The notes beneath the pieces are model-generated. The model had not been told where the DNA came from. It ran no database searches and was given only the letters and a program-made list of their open reading frames with translations. A stretch of DNA of 64,000 nt from Halodesulfurarchaeum sp. (GTDB taxonomy: Archaea; Halobacteriota; Halobacteria; Halobacteriales; Halobacteriaceae), in the NCBI GenBank assembly GCA_034520565.1, contig JAXHNL010000002.1, positions 64,001 through 128,000 of the forward strand. The letters are read 5' to 3'. Shown here piece after piece: positions 7,170-37,761 of the stretch; positions within the stretch are counted from its first letter, which is position 1, and every line of letters starts with the position of its first letter. Made by a program: the position numbers and the translations under genes.

Positions 7170-7396
7170 CGGACCCGACGGGACTCCCGCGAACGCAGTG
7201 AGCGGGAGGTCGTCGGGGGAGCGAAGTGTTCCGAAGGAACCTGAGCGGACCCGACGGGATTTGAACCAGAGGAAGACTCGCTCCCGAAGGTCGCTCGTCT
7301 TCCAGGGCTCAAATCCCTGAACGTTTTCACTGCTCCCTTCGGTCGCAGGAAAACGTCGCCGTCCGTTCGTACTCCTCGCTTCGCTCGGAGAACTCA
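7170..7396 (-). repeat. Two structured non-coding units, each ending in a copy of the tRNA-Arg 3' end
   Basis: cggacccgacgggatttgaacc at 7246-7267 and cggacccgacggga at 7170-7183 repeat tRNA nt 7397-7418 and 7397-7410; the intervening DNA forms hairpins. Confidence 0.9.
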
Positions 7397-7469
7397 CGGA
7401 CCCGACGGGATTTGAACCCGTGACATCTTGGTCCGGAACCAAGGACTCTGTCCACTGAGCTACGGGCCC
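7397..7469 (-). tRNA. tRNA-Arg(CCG)
   Basis: Reverse complement GGGCCCGTAGCTCAGTGGACAGAGTCCTTGGTTCCGGACCAAGATGTCACGGGTTCAAATCCCGTCGGGTCCG; anticodon arm CTTGG-TT-CCG-GA-CCAAG; no encoded CCA; TTAAA box about 27 nt upstream. Confidence 0.96.
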
Positions 7470-7860: not shown

Positions 7861-8634
7861 ATGGATCGTGGAACAATCCTCGCCGTCGCGATCGCGGTCG
7901 CCGTGATCGCCGGAGCCGGCACCGCCGGCGTCGCAATGGCGTTTTCCGACCAGAACGCATCGCCCAACCAGACAACCGACATCGACAAACCAGCCCCGAA
8001 CAGCACCATCACCGTCTCGGCCACGGGCTCCGAGAGTGCCGACCCCGACAAGGCCGAACTCCGCATCGTCGTCCAGAAAACCGCCGATGACCCGAACACC
8101 GCCCGCACCGACGTCGCGAACAACGTCTCCAGCGTCACCGAGGCCCTGCTCGCCATGGGTCTCGCCGACGAGGACATCCGCACCACCGACTACCGCATCG
8201 GCGAACGCGTCGAACGACCCACCGGGCCCACCGAGGAGCGAACCGAAGAACGCGTCGCCTACGCCCGCCAGACCCTCGAAGTCGAGATAACCGACCTCGA
8301 CCAGGTCGGCTCGGCCATCGACACCGCCGTCGAAAGCGGCGCCACCGAGGTCCAGAACGTCCGCTACACGCTCACCGAACAGACCCGGAACGAACTCCGG
8401 AACGAGGCCCTCGTGGCCGCGATGGAGCAGGCCCGATCCCAGGCCGACACCCTCGCGACCCAGTCCGAGCTGACCATCACCGGCCCGAGCGAGATCACGA
8501 CCGATTCCTACCACTCGCCGATCGTCCGCTACGAGACTGCCGCCGGCGGAGTCGCAGAGAGTAGCACCGAAATCGACGCCGGCCCGGTCTCGGTCCAGAC
8601 CCAGGTCACCGTGACCTACGAAGCCGCCCCGTAA
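7861..8634 (+). CDS. SIMPL (DUF541) domain secreted protein
   Basis: Signal peptide, ITVSATG..SADPD.A, GATEVQNV.Y.L, AL..AM..AR.QA..LA, V.VTY C-terminus. Confidence 0.9.
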   Translation: MDRGTILAVAIAVAVIAGAGTAGVAMAFSDQNASPNQTTDIDKPAPNSTITVSATGSESADPDKAELRIVVQKTADDPNTARTDVANNVSSVTEALLAMGLADEDIRTTDYRIGERVERPTGPTEERTEERVAYARQTLEVEITDLDQVGSAIDTAVESGATEVQNVRYTLTEQTRNELRNEALVAAMEQARSQADTLATQSELTITGPSEITTDSYHSPIVRYETAAGGVAESSTEIDAGPVSVQTQVTVTYEAAP

Positions 8635-35249: not shown

Positions 35250-35789
35250 TCACTCCGTTTCGTCCGCGAACGCCGCCTGGATCTTCTTCACCTTCGGTTC
35301 GACGTACAGGGTGCAGTACCGATCGTCTGGGTTGTTCGCGTAGTAGTCCTGGTGGGCCTCTTCGGCCTCCCAGAAGGTCTCGAGCGGTTCGACCTCGGTG
35401 ACGATCCCGCCCTCGAAGGCTTCCTCGTCCTCGAGGGCAGCCAGAAACGCCTGCGCGGTCTCCAGTTGCTCGTCGTCGTGGGCGAAAATCGCCGAGCGGT
35501 ACTGGGTCCCCACGTCGGGACCCTGTCGGTTCAATTGCGTGGGATCGTGGACCCGAAAGAAAACCCCAAGAAGGTCGACGTATGTGATCTCCTCTGGGTC
35601 GTACTCGAGTTGCACGCACTCGGCATGGCCCGTCTCGCCGGTCGAAACGGCCTCGTAGCTCGGGTCGGAAACGTCCCCGCCCGCGTATCCCGACGTCGCC
35701 GAAAGCACTCCGGGAACCTCCTCGAAGGCGGCCTCGAGACACCAGAAACAGCCGCCCGCGAGTGTCGCCAGGACCGGTTCGGTTGCCAT
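35250..35789 (-). CDS. msrA: Peptide-methionine (S)-S-oxide reductase
   Basis: GGCFWC, SGYAGG, TGHAE, HDPT..NRQG.D.GTQYRS, AEE.HQDYY. Confidence 0.96.
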   Translation of the reverse strand: MATEPVLATLAGGCFWCLEAAFEEVPGVLSATSGYAGGDVSDPSYEAVSTGETGHAECVQLEYDPEEITYVDLLGVFFRVHDPTQLNRQGPDVGTQYRSAIFAHDDEQLETAQAFLAALEDEEAFEGGIVTEVEPLETFWEAEEAHQDYYANNPDDRYCTLYVEPKVKKIQAAFADETE

Positions 35790-35900
35790 ACGAATAGAAG
35801 GCCGGAGAGACCCAAAAGCACACCGGCAGCGGAAATCGGGTGCGAGTTGGCTGGCGGCGAATCGACGGGTGGAAACCGACGGGCCAGCTACCCGGACCCG

Positions 35901-37184
35901 ATGGAGATCCGGTTTCTCGGCGGCGCCCGCGAGGTCGGCCGGAGTGCCCTCCTCGTCAACGAGCGGCTGCTGCTCGACTTCGGTATCAAAGCCGGCGAGC
36001 CGCTCCAGTTCCCGATCGATCGGCCGTCGGTCGACGCGGTGGTGGCCAGCCACGGCCACCTCGACCACGTCGGCAACGTCCCCACGCTCTGTACCGGCGA
36101 AGACTGGCCGACGATCCACTGGACGCCACCGACCGGCGAGTTGGCCCGCACCCTCGCTCGGGACACGCTCAAACTGCACGGCGTTCCGGAAACGGGAGCG
36201 AAATCCGGCCGGTTTCAGCCCCGCGAACTCGGCGGCAATTACAACTGTCCGTTCACCGAGATCCACGTGAAACGAGTGACCCAGCAGTCCCGGATCCACG
36301 GGTACCGGGAGCCGTTCACCGCGGCGGGCCACGAAGTCACCTTCTTCTCAGCGGGTCACATCCCCGGAAGCGCGCACGTCCTCGTCGACGACGGCGAGAC
36401 ACGACTGCTCTACACCGGCGATTTCCACACCGCCGACCAGCGACTCGTGGCCGGAACGACCGCCCGCCCGGATGCGGACGTCGTCATCACCGAGAGCACC
36501 TACGCGAACGTCACCCACGAGCCACGGCACGAGGTCGAATCGCGATTCGTCCGACAGGTCGAACGGACCCTCTGGGAGGGTGGCACAGTGGTCATTCCGG
36601 CCTTTGCCATCGGGCGGACCCAGGAGTTGCTGCTCGTCTGTGACGCCCACGACATCCCGTGTTACGTCGATGGTATGGGCAAGGGCGTGACCGAAATGCT
36701 CCGGCAGTATCCGGCGTTCGTCCGGGACCCGAAGGCACTCAAACGGGCGAGCTCACACGCTCGCTTCGTCACGGGTCGGGACGGGCAGCGAAAACGGATC
36801 GCGGACCAGAGCACGGCCATCGTCACGACGAGTGGCATGCTCTCCGGCGGTCCGGCAATGACGTATATCCCGGAGATCCGGTCGGACCCGAAGAACCTGA
36901 TCGCCCTCACAGGATATCAGGTCGAAGGGACTCCCGGTCGGGAATTGCTCGAGACCGGAAACGCCGAGATCGACAACCGGCGGATGCGAGTCGCCGCTCG
37001 CGTCGAGCAGTTCGATTTCTCGGCCCACGCGGATCGGGCGGGATTGCGGTCGTTCCTGGATTCCTATCGGGACACACAGATCCTCGTGAATCACGGCGAT
37101 CGATGTGTGGAATTTACGGCGGCGTTGACGGAAGACGGGTACGAGGCAAGCGCGCCGAAAAACGGGACGACGGTGTCCGTGTGA
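35901..37184 (+). CDS. MBL-fold beta-CASP ribonuclease (aCPSF2-like)
   Basis: FLGGAREVGRS, HGHLDH, AGHIPGS, YTGD, ESTY, P.FAIGRTQE, FSAHAD, NHGD. Confidence 0.92.
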   Translation: MEIRFLGGAREVGRSALLVNERLLLDFGIKAGEPLQFPIDRPSVDAVVASHGHLDHVGNVPTLCTGEDWPTIHWTPPTGELARTLARDTLKLHGVPETGAKSGRFQPRELGGNYNCPFTEIHVKRVTQQSRIHGYREPFTAAGHEVTFFSAGHIPGSAHVLVDDGETRLLYTGDFHTADQRLVAGTTARPDADVVITESTYANVTHEPRHEVESRFVRQVERTLWEGGTVVIPAFAIGRTQELLLVCDAHDIPCYVDGMGKGVTEMLRQYPAFVRDPKALKRASSHARFVTGRDGQRKRIADQSTAIVTTSGMLSGGPAMTYIPEIRSDPKNLIALTGYQVEGTPGRELLETGNAEIDNRRMRVAARVEQFDFSAHADRAGLRSFLDSYRDTQILVNHGDRCVEFTAALTEDGYEASAPKNGTTVSV

Positions 37185-37238
37185 CGGGCCGCTTCGGAGG
37201 GAAAGGGTTTAACCGGACAGTCACGACCGTGTAGGTGT

Positions 37239-37312
37239 GGGCCGGTAGCTCAGGTAGGCAGAGCGTCTGGCTTTTAACCAGACGGACGGGGGTTCAAATC
37301 CCTCCCGGCCCG
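37239..37312 (+). tRNA. tRNA-Lys(UUU)
   Basis: GGGCCGG...CCGGCCCG acceptor stem, TCTGG-CT-TTT-AA-CCAGA anticodon arm, GGTTCAAATCC T arm; TTTAA box at about 37208. Confidence 0.96.
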
Positions 37313-37604
37313 CTTCTGTCAAACCAAGAGCGTGTCCCGTCAGGGACCGCTCGACCAGTGACGAACGGGACAGGAGGGATTTGAACGAGAGAAACGCGAG
37401 CACGAGCGAGCGTTTCGCGTAGTTCACAATCCCTCCCGGCCCGTGAGTCCCCGAGCGAAGCGAGGGTGACGAACCGGGGCGGTCGGTGTCCTGCGAACGA
37501 AGTGAGCAGTGACGCCGACGGGATTTGAACCCGGGGAGGGGCGCGCGCAGCGAACAACCGTGAGCGAGCACGTCTCCACTCGCTTCAACATCCCTCCCGG
37601 CCCG
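37313..37604 (+). repeat. Two structured non-coding units, each ending in a copy of the tRNA-Lys 3' end
   Basis: atccctcccggcccg at 37298-37312 (tRNA), 37429-37443 and 37590-37604; each unit has an inverted T-arm copy GGGATTTGAAC. Confidence 0.9.
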
Positions 37605-37761
37605 TCTTTTCTCGCGAGCGTGCGAGAGCAGGTCGACCCTGTCCGGGAGTTTATGAATGATGACGGGGCCAACGGCACCCATGAATTGACCCCGTACCCG
37701 AATCGGGCAGCGATTGTGTGACGAATCGATTCGGGAAGATTCGCCGTCACCTGTTCGCCAT

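Follow-up and report, generated by a model that had tools for sequence, protein, structure and literature searches.

A family of structured hairpins 3' of haloarchaeal tRNA genes, with arms templated on the tRNA 3' end

The closest described systems to the repeats reported here are tRNA-like elements, integron attC sites, the att repeats of integrative elements at tRNA genes, and REP/BIME palindromes and terminator hairpins. In Haloferax volcanii, tRNA-like elements undergo cleavage by RNase P and tRNase Z (PMC4946936), and another report places a stable tRNA-His 3' trailer at about 60 nt on a northern blot (PMC3495736). For haloarchaeal SNJ2, the att core is given as 14 bp (PMC5861418). Two further sources deal only with the partial tRNAs of prophages (PMC3119063) and with the repeats of integrative elements (PMC7002104), not with hairpin modules, and another describes a different palindrome 3' of Methanopyrus tRNAs (PMC5217627). 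No Rfam family and no literature description of tRNA-trailer hairpin modules was found, and the family seems to be previously undescribed. A 2012 Biochimie paper by Hoelzle et al. reportedly lists 47 tRNA-like elements in H. volcanii, which may overlap the present family, and selected elements are said to have gone uncleaved in vitro.

The repeated units 3' of tRNA-Lys(UUU)

The window, the whole stretch of 64,000 nucleotides of Halodesulfurarchaeum DNA that was analysed, contains a tRNA-Lys(UUU) gene at 37239-37313/37312 on the plus strand (ARAGORN; Rfam tRNA RF00005, 68.9 bits). The original prediction described units of 131 and 161 bp 3' of this gene, both ending in ATCCCTCCCGGCCCG, and that spacing and those exact copies were found: the sequence has three exact plus-strand copies in the window, at 37298, 37429 and 37590, and one minus-strand copy with two mismatches, at 37366-37380. 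At up to two mismatches these make four window matches, against a shuffle mean of 0.74, and four were reached by 1 of 100 shuffles. The locus is laid out as follows.

37208-37213 (+): TTTAAC, a hexamer resembling a TATA box, lying about 26-31 nt 5' of the tRNA
37239-37313 (+): tRNA-Lys(UUU) gene (ARAGORN; RF00005)
37292-37312 (+): genuine tRNA 3' end (T loop, 3' strand of the T stem, 3' strand of the acceptor, discriminator), the template of all copies ('T')
37314-37444 (+): unit 1, 131 nt, leader and long hairpin (covariance model R1 at 37365-37444, E 3.3e-7)
37328-37352 (+): leader hairpin of unit 1, predicted fold GAGCG-GTCCC-GTCA-GGGAC-CGCTC
37366-37386 (+): 5' arm of unit 1, reverse complement of the tRNA-Lys 3' end (19/21)
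37387-37421 (+): core of unit 1, with an internal loop, a 7-bp stem GAAACGC/GCGTTTC and the apex GA-GC-ACGA-GC-GA
37422-37443 (+): 3' arm of unit 1, repeating the tRNA 3' end and holding one extra C (37427)
37445-37605 (+): unit 2, 161 nt, two leader hairpins and long hairpin (R1 at 37510-37605, E 4.4e-5)
37450-37466 (+): leader hairpin 1 of unit 2, predicted fold CCC-GA-GC-GAA-GC-GA-GGG
37474-37482 (+): acceptor-complement segment of unit 2, CCGGGGCGG, from the fold and comparison with Arg-ccg unit 1
37482-37519 (+): leader hairpin 2 of unit 2, predicted fold GTCGGTGTC-CTGC-GA-AC-GAA-GT-GA-GCAG-T-GACGCCGAC
37520-37532 (+): inverted T arm of unit 2, GGGATTTGAACCC, a 13/13 complement of the genuine T arm
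37533-37583 (+): core of unit 2, long 'type B', GGGGAGGGGCGCGCGC...CGAACAACCGTGAG...GTCTCCACTCGC
37584-37604 (+): 3' arm of unit 2, repeating the tRNA 3' end and holding one extra C (37589)
37605-37626 (+): T tract (TCTTTTCT) and short trailer hairpin 3' of the last copy

From the usual position of archaeal TATA boxes, we take TTTAAC at 37208-37213 to be the likely promoter of both the tRNA and the array, and the T tract and trailer hairpin at 37605-37626 likely form the terminator of the whole array.

Within unit 1, the inverted arm at 37366-37386 is 90% complementary to the genuine tRNA-Lys 3' end at 37292-37312; that of unit 2, at 37520-37532, is complementary to 37290-37302 at 13 of 13 positions. 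The inverted T arms originally placed at 37373-37386 and 37520-37530 are correct and lie within these longer arms. Folding energy z-scores are -8.6 for unit 1 and -3.0 for unit 2, with no equally stable sequence among 200 shuffles. The inner stem of unit 1, GAAACGC-GA-GC-ACGA-GC-GA-GCGTTTC, appears in the predicted fold as first described, and its apex consists of G-C pairs with tandem G.A on both sides. The leader type of unit 1 recurs 3' of tRNA-Ser(tga) and tRNA-His, and the core of unit 2 is orthologous to that of the one unit found in the congener G011. Leader hairpin 2 separates CCGGGGCGG from the T-loop complement, so that a three-way junction is predicted in unit 2. Derivation of the inverted arm of unit 2 (…GACGCCGAC-GGGATTTGAACCC) from a fragment of another tRNA was considered and ruled out: GACGCCGAC pairs with GTCGGTGTC in leader hairpin 2, the homologous Arg-ccg unit is laid out alike, and no tRNA of the genome has such an end.

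On the 3' side of the array is a minus-strand gene for a PAS/HisKA/HATPase histidine kinase, and the flank has a homologous counterpart in G011; the other neighbour of the array codes for a beta-CASP RNase. No island follows, as originally noted, and the array is indeed not a plain island scar; it is composed of regenerated tRNA 3' ends with inverted, hairpin-forming partners. The Lys units hold only overlapping minus-strand open reading frames in GC-rich DNA, a plausible gene not being expected at 131 or 161 nt; no coding remnant of a mobile element was seen in the units, and no integron platform (intI integrase, attI and its promoter) adjoins the array.

A hairpin family in this genome and across Halobacteria

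The Lys repeats are members of a large family of structured hairpins 3' of many haloarchaeal tRNA genes. The original prediction saw the array itself correctly and overlooked that it belongs to a family which spans the class and accompanies many tRNAs. Of the 44 tRNA genes that ARAGORN finds in this genome, 15 carry one to three units, 24 in total, each ending in the 3' end of its own tRNA. A covariance model, R1, built from 10 type-A hairpins gave 33 matches at 28 distinct places in the genome, with the tRNA strand stronger in all. Hairpins found with a strict pattern are all preceded, on the same strand, by a tRNA or else by a tRNA 3'-end copy. Units measure 76-177 nt between repeats and are non-coding, structured and homologous across different tRNAs. 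Each lies on the tRNA strand directly 3' of the tRNA gene or of the preceding unit, and consists of a leader with small G.A-flanked hairpins followed by a long hairpin, the outer stem of which pairs the tRNA 3' end, from T loop to discriminator, with its reverse complement. Both Lys units match R1, contain the G.A-flanked helix (CGAGCACGAGCGAG; CGAACAACCGTGAG) and have the exact 15-mer as their 3' terminus. The window holds one more tRNA with such an array:

7397-7469 (-): tRNA-Arg(CCG) gene (ARAGORN)
7170-7396 (-): two units of 151 and 76 nt, ending in the tRNA-Arg(CCG) 3' end

Unit 1 of this array is the best R1 match of the genome (7245-7329 on the minus strand, 97.5 bits). Across loci, the arms follow the local tRNA, T-loop variants included, and own-arm complementarity exceeds that of all 5000 permutations. 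Some T copies are unlike the local tRNA (G001 Arg-tct; a Val-cac unit that has the Val-gac version of the 3' end), and some units are degenerate (the tails of G004 and G010, and Arg-tct unit b). Two hairpins with no nearby tRNA, C2:525946 and C2:530558, were considered for placement in an rRNA operon, which was rejected on finding no Rfam matches there; they come after integrated elements at tRNA-Arg(tct).

Alignment of 35 hairpins with MAFFT/RNAalifold recovered the T-loop helix alone, because the core types differ in length. In a structural alignment, pairing covers 93.3% of cells, compared with 78.1% in shuffles (0/500), double-sided changes number 151 against 39 in shuffles (0/500) and at most 31 in slid controls, and 7 of 7 mid-stem pairs covary, figures to be read in the light that palindrome generation can itself yield covariation and that the alignment (A4) was model-fitted. 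The mini-helix flanked by G.A/A.G at the apex is present in 38 of 42 hairpins on the tRNA strand and in 1 of 42 on the complement.

A simple hairpin pattern was matched in 296 of 301 genomes and 79 of 80 genera of the class Halobacteria, and the reversed-pattern control gave 0 in every genome. In a sample of the phylum, all 14 Halobacteria matched, as did 8 of 107 genomes from outside the class, with one unrelated-looking match each. Eight of 12 loci in other genera lie 3' of a same-strand tRNA, and in 16 of 20 hairpins of named haloarchaea the upstream tRNA ends with the same 13 nt that follow the T-loop copy. The Lys leader sequence is kept across genera, as are the architecture and core types, complete isolate genomes included.

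Cores are exchanged between tRNA loci: two different tRNAs share an identical 58-nt core that starts and stops within inverted T-loop sequences. Arrays grow and shrink between species: unit number varies between congeners, with the extra unit adjoining the tRNA, and in G001 Ser-tga units 2-3 are duplicated as a tandem block. Integrases use the 3'-end copies as att sites. At tRNA-Arg(tct) the layout is tRNA-Arg(tct)-T-E1-T-unit-T-E2-T-unit-T, in which an integrase-bearing element (Pfam Phage_integrase) and a second, decayed element each have tRNA 3'-end copies as their borders and alternate with hairpin units.

Both Lys units carry an extra C in the T-loop copy, at 37427 (GTTCAcAATCCC) and 37589 (TTCAAcATCCC), and RNAfold gives a single-base bulge for each, in line with the first description of these bases as extrahelical. 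The accompanying suggestion that the bulged C is an attC-like recognition or anti-retargeting determinant is unsupported as a general rule, since the extra base is found in 4 of 42 tRNA-strand hairpins of the structural alignment and, in a separate set of named haloarchaea, at 1 of 24 loci. The base is shared by the G011 orthologue of the Lys unit, Pro-tgg unit 1 of this genome and a tRNA-Val unit of Haloarcula regularis; the Pro-tgg unit has an orthologue in G001 that does not have it. Only a minority of hairpins show the extra C, and it is not a general determinant. A subfamily-specific role may exist, because the inserted base is C every time, at the same site (TTCA^AATCC), in four contexts (Lys unit 1, Pro-tgg unit 1, G011 Lys and Haloarcula Val). 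Reads were checked through Logan contigs, which are broken over the repeat; the flanks and the tRNA are covered by those of two runs, X1 and X2, from a salt pan metagenome that is possibly the source. A single short X2 contig (depth 4) spans 37589 without the C and may derive from the tRNA-Lys unit of another organism, because neighbouring pieces have loose ends belonging to units of other tRNAs. At 37427, no indel row was present among the contig comparisons (depth 1.7).

Possible roles and origins of the units

The reading that we prefer, with moderate confidence, is that the units are co-transcribed RNA modules of the pre-tRNA trailer that mimic the tRNA 3' end; we infer that they are transcribed, processed and of benefit to the cell. 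The array would be transcribed with the tRNA from the tRNA promoter and would work as RNA, the 3' side of each module rebuilding the helix, discriminator and U-tract context of the genuine tRNA 3' end. Modules may serve as extra sites of end formation or processing (tRNase Z, termination) and may also give the transcript a stable, structured trailer. Arrays would grow and shrink by recombination between the repeated 3'-end copies; inner cores are swapped among tRNA loci, the exchanged stretch ending in the inverted T-loop sequences, and the 3'-end copies double as attachment cores for tyrosine integrases. TTTT stands 3' of the last copy in 7 of 15 arrays and 3' of the tRNA itself in 1 of 15, a hint of co-transcription. 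The tRNA-His trailer and the cleaved tRNA-like elements of H. volcanii are precedents for this reading. In the predicted folds the T-loop bases of the copies are paired, and with its T loop not free the hairpin would not be a canonical substrate of tRNase Z or RNase P. Contigs from RNA runs at the Lys locus contain the tRNA part only. Mean complementarity is 7.6 of 14 for own pairs and 6.6 for cross pairs, and degeneration of the 5' arms is common; this is weak for a strongly selected stem and counts against the RNA reading. The asymmetry of G.T and G.A fits folded single-stranded DNA as well as it fits RNA.

A second reading, which we consider rather unlikely, is that the units are DNA-level cassettes, non-autonomous modules comparable to cis-mobilisable elements or integron cassettes and inserted, excised and accreted by tRNA-targeting tyrosine integrases at the 3'-end copies. 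The hairpin would then be a recombination site in the form of a folded single strand or a cruciform, and the bulged C a feature of strand choice or a guard against re-targeting. The direct 13-22 nt copies of tRNA 3' ends that flank units have the size of known haloarchaeal att cores, and such copies bound both the integrase element and the decayed one interleaved with units at tRNA-Arg(tct). The extra unit beside the tRNA in congeners, the shared 58-nt core with ends in inverted T-loop sequences, and the strand-specific mismatches, which suit folded single-stranded DNA as in attC, also point this way. However, the same core and leader types occur at 15 or more tRNAs, each with its own 3' end in both arms, which is impossible for one integrase with one attP, and most arrays have no neighbouring integrase. 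A blastn search of the units against 50,697 phage and 72,556 plasmid records gave no match, and of 80 pattern matches in viral contigs 1 was a true family member, at a provirus/host border. The hairpins are near-universal in the class rather than patchy, are always oriented with the tRNA transcript, and in just 4 of 42 cases have the extra base.

More speculative, and to our minds quite unlikely, is a joint proposal in which all Halobacteria carry exchangeable tRNA-templated hairpin cassettes that would be freed from the pre-tRNA as minihelix-like RNAs (possibly CCA-tagged), with a protein for the G.A motif and cores swapped by a recombinase. That recombinase would act on the inverted T-loop sequences, and the whole might be a tRNA-anchored analogue of an integron that sets the integration sites of viruses and plasmids.

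It is distinctly improbable that the units are inert by-products, leftovers of integration and deletion that were amplified by unequal crossing-over and palindromised by template switching, with no function. Degenerate 5' arms, degenerate units, the tandem block duplication in G001 and T copies that are sometimes unlike the local tRNA are all compatible with such an origin. Yet the family persists in 79 of 80 genera without change of architecture or core types, the Lys leader is conserved across genera, compensatory changes occur at every mid-stem pair, and the non-palindromic G.A/A.G motif is one-stranded (38/42 against 1/42), which palindrome-generating mechanisms cannot yield. Hardly credible is an artefact, in which the array or just its two extra Cs would be assembly or consensus errors of a metagenome-assembled genome (two contigs, 81% complete; X2 contig without the C at 37589), as the same architecture recurs 28 times in the genome and is shared by hundreds of others, complete isolates included, the extra C is also present in the orthologous G011 unit and the complete Haloarcula regularis chromosome, and the X2 contig may be from another organism.

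Several further origins were rejected. The Val-cac unit with its Val-gac end and the T copies unlike the local tRNA speak against target-site duplication or casposon-like insertion; no terminal inverted repeats bounding whole units were seen. Modifications of tRNA at position 58/59 stop reverse transcriptases, and the exact part of some copies begins at this position; retro-copying was rejected as a general rule, as most copies are exact from G53/T54 and none contains CCA or its complement. Identity with MITEs was also rejected: the core is flanked by inverted complements where a MITE would have a direct duplication, every copy is located in a tRNA trailer, and no partner transposase was seen. 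MITE-like traits were noted separately in the inverted T-loop repeats that flank the core and in the identical 58-nt core at two loci.

If the family is indeed undescribed, between one third and one half of the tRNA genes in this archaeal class bear a conserved, structured and fast-evolving appendage with no assigned role. The modules bear on the termination and trimming of archaeal pre-tRNAs, on the origin of stable tRNA-trailer RNAs, on the exchange of short non-coding modules between loci and, because they multiply the att core, on tRNA 3' ends as integration hot spots. For annotation, they explain many 'partial tRNA' copies otherwise taken for prophage scars, and they are directly testable in model haloarchaea.

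Comparison with known systems

Like the t-elements of H. volcanii and mascRNA mimics, the units are non-tRNA sequences that imitate the acceptor and T arm, here presumably within precursor transcripts. They differ in copying the 3' strand of the neighbouring tRNA itself, paired with its reverse complement, in having the T loop paired within a long helix with a G.A-rich apex, and in their tandem position 3' of tRNA genes. An Rfam search at E<=10 returned the genuine tRNA only, the tRNA and mascRNA models having no match to the units.

Integron attC sites and cassette arrays are likewise tandem, each member ending in an imperfect hairpin in which structure is conserved better than sequence. Both systems have strand-specific mismatches, an extrahelical base (in some copies of the units), a tyrosine-recombinase context and the newest unit beside a fixed site. 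In contrast to integron cassettes, the units have no open reading frames and no adjacent intI/attI/Pc platform, have an extrahelical base in 4 of 42 hairpins only, have arms dictated by the adjacent tRNA, and are limited to one archaeal class. The R''/R' boxes of attC follow the consensus RYYYAAC ... GTTRRRY; the arms of the units hold ...TTGAAC and GTTCAA..., the tRNA T loop and its complement, and are off this purine/pyrimidine pattern.

With att repeats in tRNA genes (SNJ2-type, 14-bp core) and cis-mobilisable elements, the units share direct repeats of 13-22 nt of the tRNA 3' end, and real integrated elements in this genome use those same copies. Unlike integrative elements, the unit DNA is short (76-177 nt), non-coding, structured, homologous between tRNAs, near-universal in the class and without match in the phage and plasmid collections. 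Bacterial REP/BIME palindromes and intrinsic terminators are similar: they too are abundant imperfect hairpins that close transcription units on the 3' side, often just before a T tract, and may contribute to RNA end formation and stability; the units differ from these in being restricted to tRNA trailers and in having an outer stem templated on the tRNA.

Hairpin units behind tRNA-Lys(UUU)

Behind tRNA-Lys(UUU) lie two tandem units, each a trailer module (a leader and a long hairpin) that ends in a copy of the tRNA 3' end; such a series behind one tRNA is referred to as an array, and the inner part of each hairpin as its core. The last 15 nt of the tRNA ahead of the trailer, ATCCCTCCCGGCCCG, have exact copies at 37429 and 37590, whose spacing bears out the unit lengths of 131 and 161 nt in the original prediction. 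An inverted T-arm copy in each unit and a one-base C insertion in both direct copies had likewise been described, and both are present; the expected pairing of each inverted arm with the copy downstream is reproduced by RNAfold, which predicts the C to be extrahelical, as a single-base bulge. In unit 1 the inner stem reads GAAACGC-GA-GC-ACGA-GC-GA-GCGTTTC, exactly as first given. Both inverted arms match the genuine T arm of the tRNA better than their own partner copy, and folding-energy z-scores (RNAfold) are -8.6 for unit 1 and -3.0 for unit 2, with equally good shuffles in 0 of 200.

Arrays of the window and associated features
7170-7469, minus strand: tRNA-Arg(CCG) and its array, the second in the window
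35352-37184, plus strand: beta-CASP / metallo-beta-lactamase RNase gene (Pfam; 610-aa product), immediately before the tRNA-Lys promoter
37239-37313, plus strand: tRNA-Lys(UUU) (ARAGORN; Rfam tRNA, 68.9 bits)
37366-37386: first inverted T arm, 19/21 complementary to the genuine tRNA-Lys 3' end
37427: extra C in the direct copy of unit 1, which reads GTTCAcAATCCC
37474-37482: acceptor complement of unit 2
37520-37532: second inverted T arm, 13/13 complementary
37589: extra C in the direct copy of unit 2, which reads TTCAAcATCCC

A PAS histidine kinase gene lies downstream of the array on the opposite strand, and the downstream flank has a homologous counterpart in a congener; there is therefore no island behind the array, and what had been observed at this locus is confirmed in every point. 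The RNase family represented upstream includes archaeal termination and processing factors, and the position of this gene next to tRNA-Lys may be a coincidence.

General layout of a unit, 5' to 3'
Start: T-rich
Leader: one or two small hairpins
5' arm: reverse complement of the tRNA 3' end
T-loop helix: GGATTYGARCC paired with GGTTCRAATCC
Internal loop: 2-3 nt
Inner stem: 5-8 bp
Apex: G-C pairs between tandem G.A/A.G (…C-GA-GC-GAA-GC-GA-G…)
3' arm: copy of the tRNA 3' end

The 5' arm has an A opposite T64 and is therefore a true complement, rather than being copied from the 5' strands of the tRNA. In unit 2 of tRNA-Lys and unit 1 of tRNA-Arg(ccg), a leader hairpin sits between the acceptor complement and the T-loop complement, so that a three-way junction would form.

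Of 42 hairpins, 4 have an additional base in their T-loop copy (both tRNA-Lys units, unit 1 of tRNA-Pro(tgg), and the orthologue of Lys unit 2 in the congener G011); it is a C in all four and lies at TTCA^AATCC in three. Conservation of the bulge across homologous units is partial: it recurs in the G011 orthologue, and the same variant stands behind tRNA-Val of Haloarcula regularis, but in the complete congener G001 the Pro-tgg orthologue is without it. It is unlikely that the two extra Cs are artefacts, and the bulge can be taken from these comparisons as real, recurrent and tolerated. Since it is not general and its inheritance is not stable, it cannot act as recognition determinant for the family; a role in recognition had been suggested as a possibility.

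A conserved structure on the tRNA strand

Units terminated by the tRNA's own 3' end stand behind 15 of the 44 tRNAs found by ARAGORN in this genome of 1.86 Mb and two contigs (Tyr, Arg-ccg, Lys-ttt, Pro-tgg, His, Phe, Gly-gcc, Val-gac, Val-cac, Leu-gag, Leu-tag, Ser-tga, Lys-ctt, Glu-ctc and Arg-tcg). There are one to three per tRNA, of 76-177 nt each and 24 in total, and their inner parts are about 70% alike between different tRNAs. A covariance model (CM), built from 10 hairpins of a single core type with the structure set by hand, gave 33 matches in the genome at 28 distinct places, including both tRNA-Lys units (E-values of 3.6e-6 and 4.8e-4 in the genome search); opposite-strand matches of the same hairpin (echoes) scored below the tRNA-strand match in every case. 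The top match of the whole genome was unit 1 of tRNA-Arg(CCG), of 151 nt; unit 2 of that array has only 76 nt and no inverted T-loop arm, yet it terminates in the tRNA 3' end. An ARAGORN call of tRNA-Ser(gga) at 8076-8162 (minus strand), with the 3' end …CATCGGCGGTTTTC and without a normal T loop or acceptor end, is possibly false, and several of the extra calls of an intron-mode scan (68 tRNAs vs 44) are doubtful.

The window and 42 loci supplied 52 matches for the assessment of covariation, made up of 42 tRNA-strand rows and 10 echoes. In this alignment, which is fitted to the CM and whose rows are related to each other, paired cells came to 93.3% (shuffles 78.1%, 0/500) and double-sided changes to 151 cells (shuffles 39, 0/500; slid partners no more than 31), and compensatory changes were seen in 7/7 mid-stem pairs. 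Independently of the CM, a helix with GA on either side was found on the tRNA strand of 38/42 hairpins and on the complement of 1/42, and stem mismatches are G.T in 40 cases vs A.C in 10, and G.A/A.G in 26 vs T.C/C.T in 6. A purely palindrome-making DNA mechanism would be unable to give such asymmetry, which argues that the structure matters as a single strand with tRNA sense. A small G.A hairpin motif (N3-GA-NN-GNA-N'N'-GA-N3', e.g., CCCGAGCGAAGCGAGGG; 37450-37466 and 37492-37508 in the window) occurs 67 times in the genome, vs 6 in reversed controls; 23 occurrences lie in same-strand tRNA trailers, some behind tRNAs without 3'-end copies, and the others (about two thirds) outside tRNA trailers on either strand.

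Of the 301 genomes sampled from the class Halobacteria, 296 contain the pattern GATTYGAR-N20-50-GTTCRAATC, as do 79 of 80 genera, typically with 5-40 strand matches per genome, whereas the reversed pattern gave 0 matches in every one of the 301. A phylum sample had it in 14/14 Halobacteria and in only 8/107 other genomes, with one match each, unrelated by appearance. Among 12 loci from other genera, 8 lay directly behind a same-strand tRNA, 2 were false matches within tRNA-Ser and 2 were without a detected tRNA. An exact 18-mer from one core type, run against named genomes, was found at 35 places, 24 of them in Halobacteria (Haloarcula, Natronorubrum, Halosimplex, Halomicrobium, Natronobiforma, Halovalidus, Halorientalis, Halodesulfurarchaeum MAGs and others); the remaining 11 were chance bacterial matches with an incomplete hairpin. 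In 16 of 20 completed haloarchaeal hairpins, the 13-mer behind the T-loop copy recurs at the end of an upstream same-strand tRNA. At the tRNA-Lys loci of 19 relatives, at least one unit was present in 13 of the 16 having readable downstream DNA, and within the genus the numbers were 3, 1, 1, 1, 1 plus a degenerate one, and degenerate only.

Core exchange and integrases

The arms mirror the local tRNA, including the T-loop variants TTCAAAT, TTCGAAT, TTCAACT and TTCAATT, and complementarity between a unit's own arms exceeded that of all 5000 permuted assignments by a modest margin (7.57 vs 6.58 of 14). Leaders and cores are common to different tRNAs, and the same Lys leader carries three different cores in three congeners. 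In G001, an identical 58-nt segment (GGATTTGAACC to GGTTCAAATCC) is found behind tRNA-Pro(tgg) and tRNA-Ser(tga), within tRNA-specific flanks that are unrelated between the two loci, so that cores are exchanged, through short-patch conversion or a recombinase, and the exchanged segments end within the inverted T-loop sequences. Block duplication also alters arrays, with 5 units at Ser-tga and 4 at Gly-gcc in G001 vs 2 and 1 in the genome of the window. At tRNA-Arg(tct) of G001 (C1:2054800-2055600, L091), two units have one and the same 3'-end copy, TTCGAATCCCACCGTGCCCG, whereas the local tRNA ends in TTCAAATCCCGTCGTGCCCG; this tRNA end looks younger than the units, as though it had been exchanged later, e.g., by integration.

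ARAGORN finds no tRNA close to two of the hairpins; these come after 13-nt copies of the tRNA-Arg(tct) 3' end, a tRNA whose gene contains an intron.

Locus outside the window
G000:C2:516872-530630 (L051; G000 is the genome holding the window): tRNA-Arg(tct) with tandem elements and hairpin units

The order is tRNA-Arg(tct), an 8.9-kb element, copy, hairpin unit, copy, a 4.5-kb element, copy and hairpin unit, the last with a degenerate 3'-end copy. The last gene of the 8.9-kb element encodes an intact 349-aa tyrosine integrase (Pfam), and the 4.5-kb element holds an integrase remnant. Behind all this, the DNA is AT-rich and looks foreign. The layout is consistent with integration into one copy after another of an array already in place, so the 3'-end copies work as att cores; the use of 14-bp cores at tRNA genes is on record for haloarchaeal integrases (PMC5861418).

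Such att use and the turnover of units would both be accounted for if the units were integrase-mobilised DNA cassettes with a folded-strand site. This main rival explanation is nonetheless rather unlikely, as it leaves unexplained the universality of the units, the arms that are specific to the tRNA at 15 or more tRNAs, and the absence from mobile-element collections: blastn matched the units to none of 50,697 phage and 72,556 plasmid records, and among 80 viral-contig pattern matches listed the one true family member is located at a provirus/host border. Two non-haloarchaeal viral contigs from IMG/VR (L120, L126) carry perfect palindromes, CATGGATTTGAACC…GGTTCAAATCCATG, without G.A motifs, which are a different kind of T-loop-based inverted repeat.

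Proposed working and known systems

The hairpins lie on the tRNA strand without exception, with asymmetric pairs of the RNA (or ssDNA) type, and no own TATA-like motif was seen by eye in the GC-rich units. TTTT follows the last copy in 7/15 arrays, the tRNA itself in 1/15 and internal copies in 1/9. Together these features suggest that an array is read as part of the pre-tRNA transcript. Once co-transcribed, each module would re-create a helix ending in the acceptor 3' strand, discriminator and a U-rich tail, and modules may thereby supply additional sites of 3'-end formation and give rise to stable structured trailer RNAs; a stable tRNA-His trailer of ~60 nt has been observed in Haloferax volcanii (PMC3495736), a species in which RNase P and tRNase Z also cleave tRNA-like elements (PMC4946936). 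That the arrays are pre-tRNA trailer modules with 3'-end sites, for which we infer transcription, cleavage and benefit alike, has in our estimate an even chance of being correct. It is quite improbable that the units are inert scars, since neither the one-strand motif nor the covariation would then be explained, and an artefactual array is excluded.

Rfam 15 holds no family for the units and no description of them was found by full-text searching of the literature, although published tRNA-like elements of H. volcanii may overlap with the family. The units resemble known kinds of system, namely tRNA mimics in precursors, att-repeat arrays and hairpin cassettes, and there is a real chance that the trailer hairpin units are a new kind.
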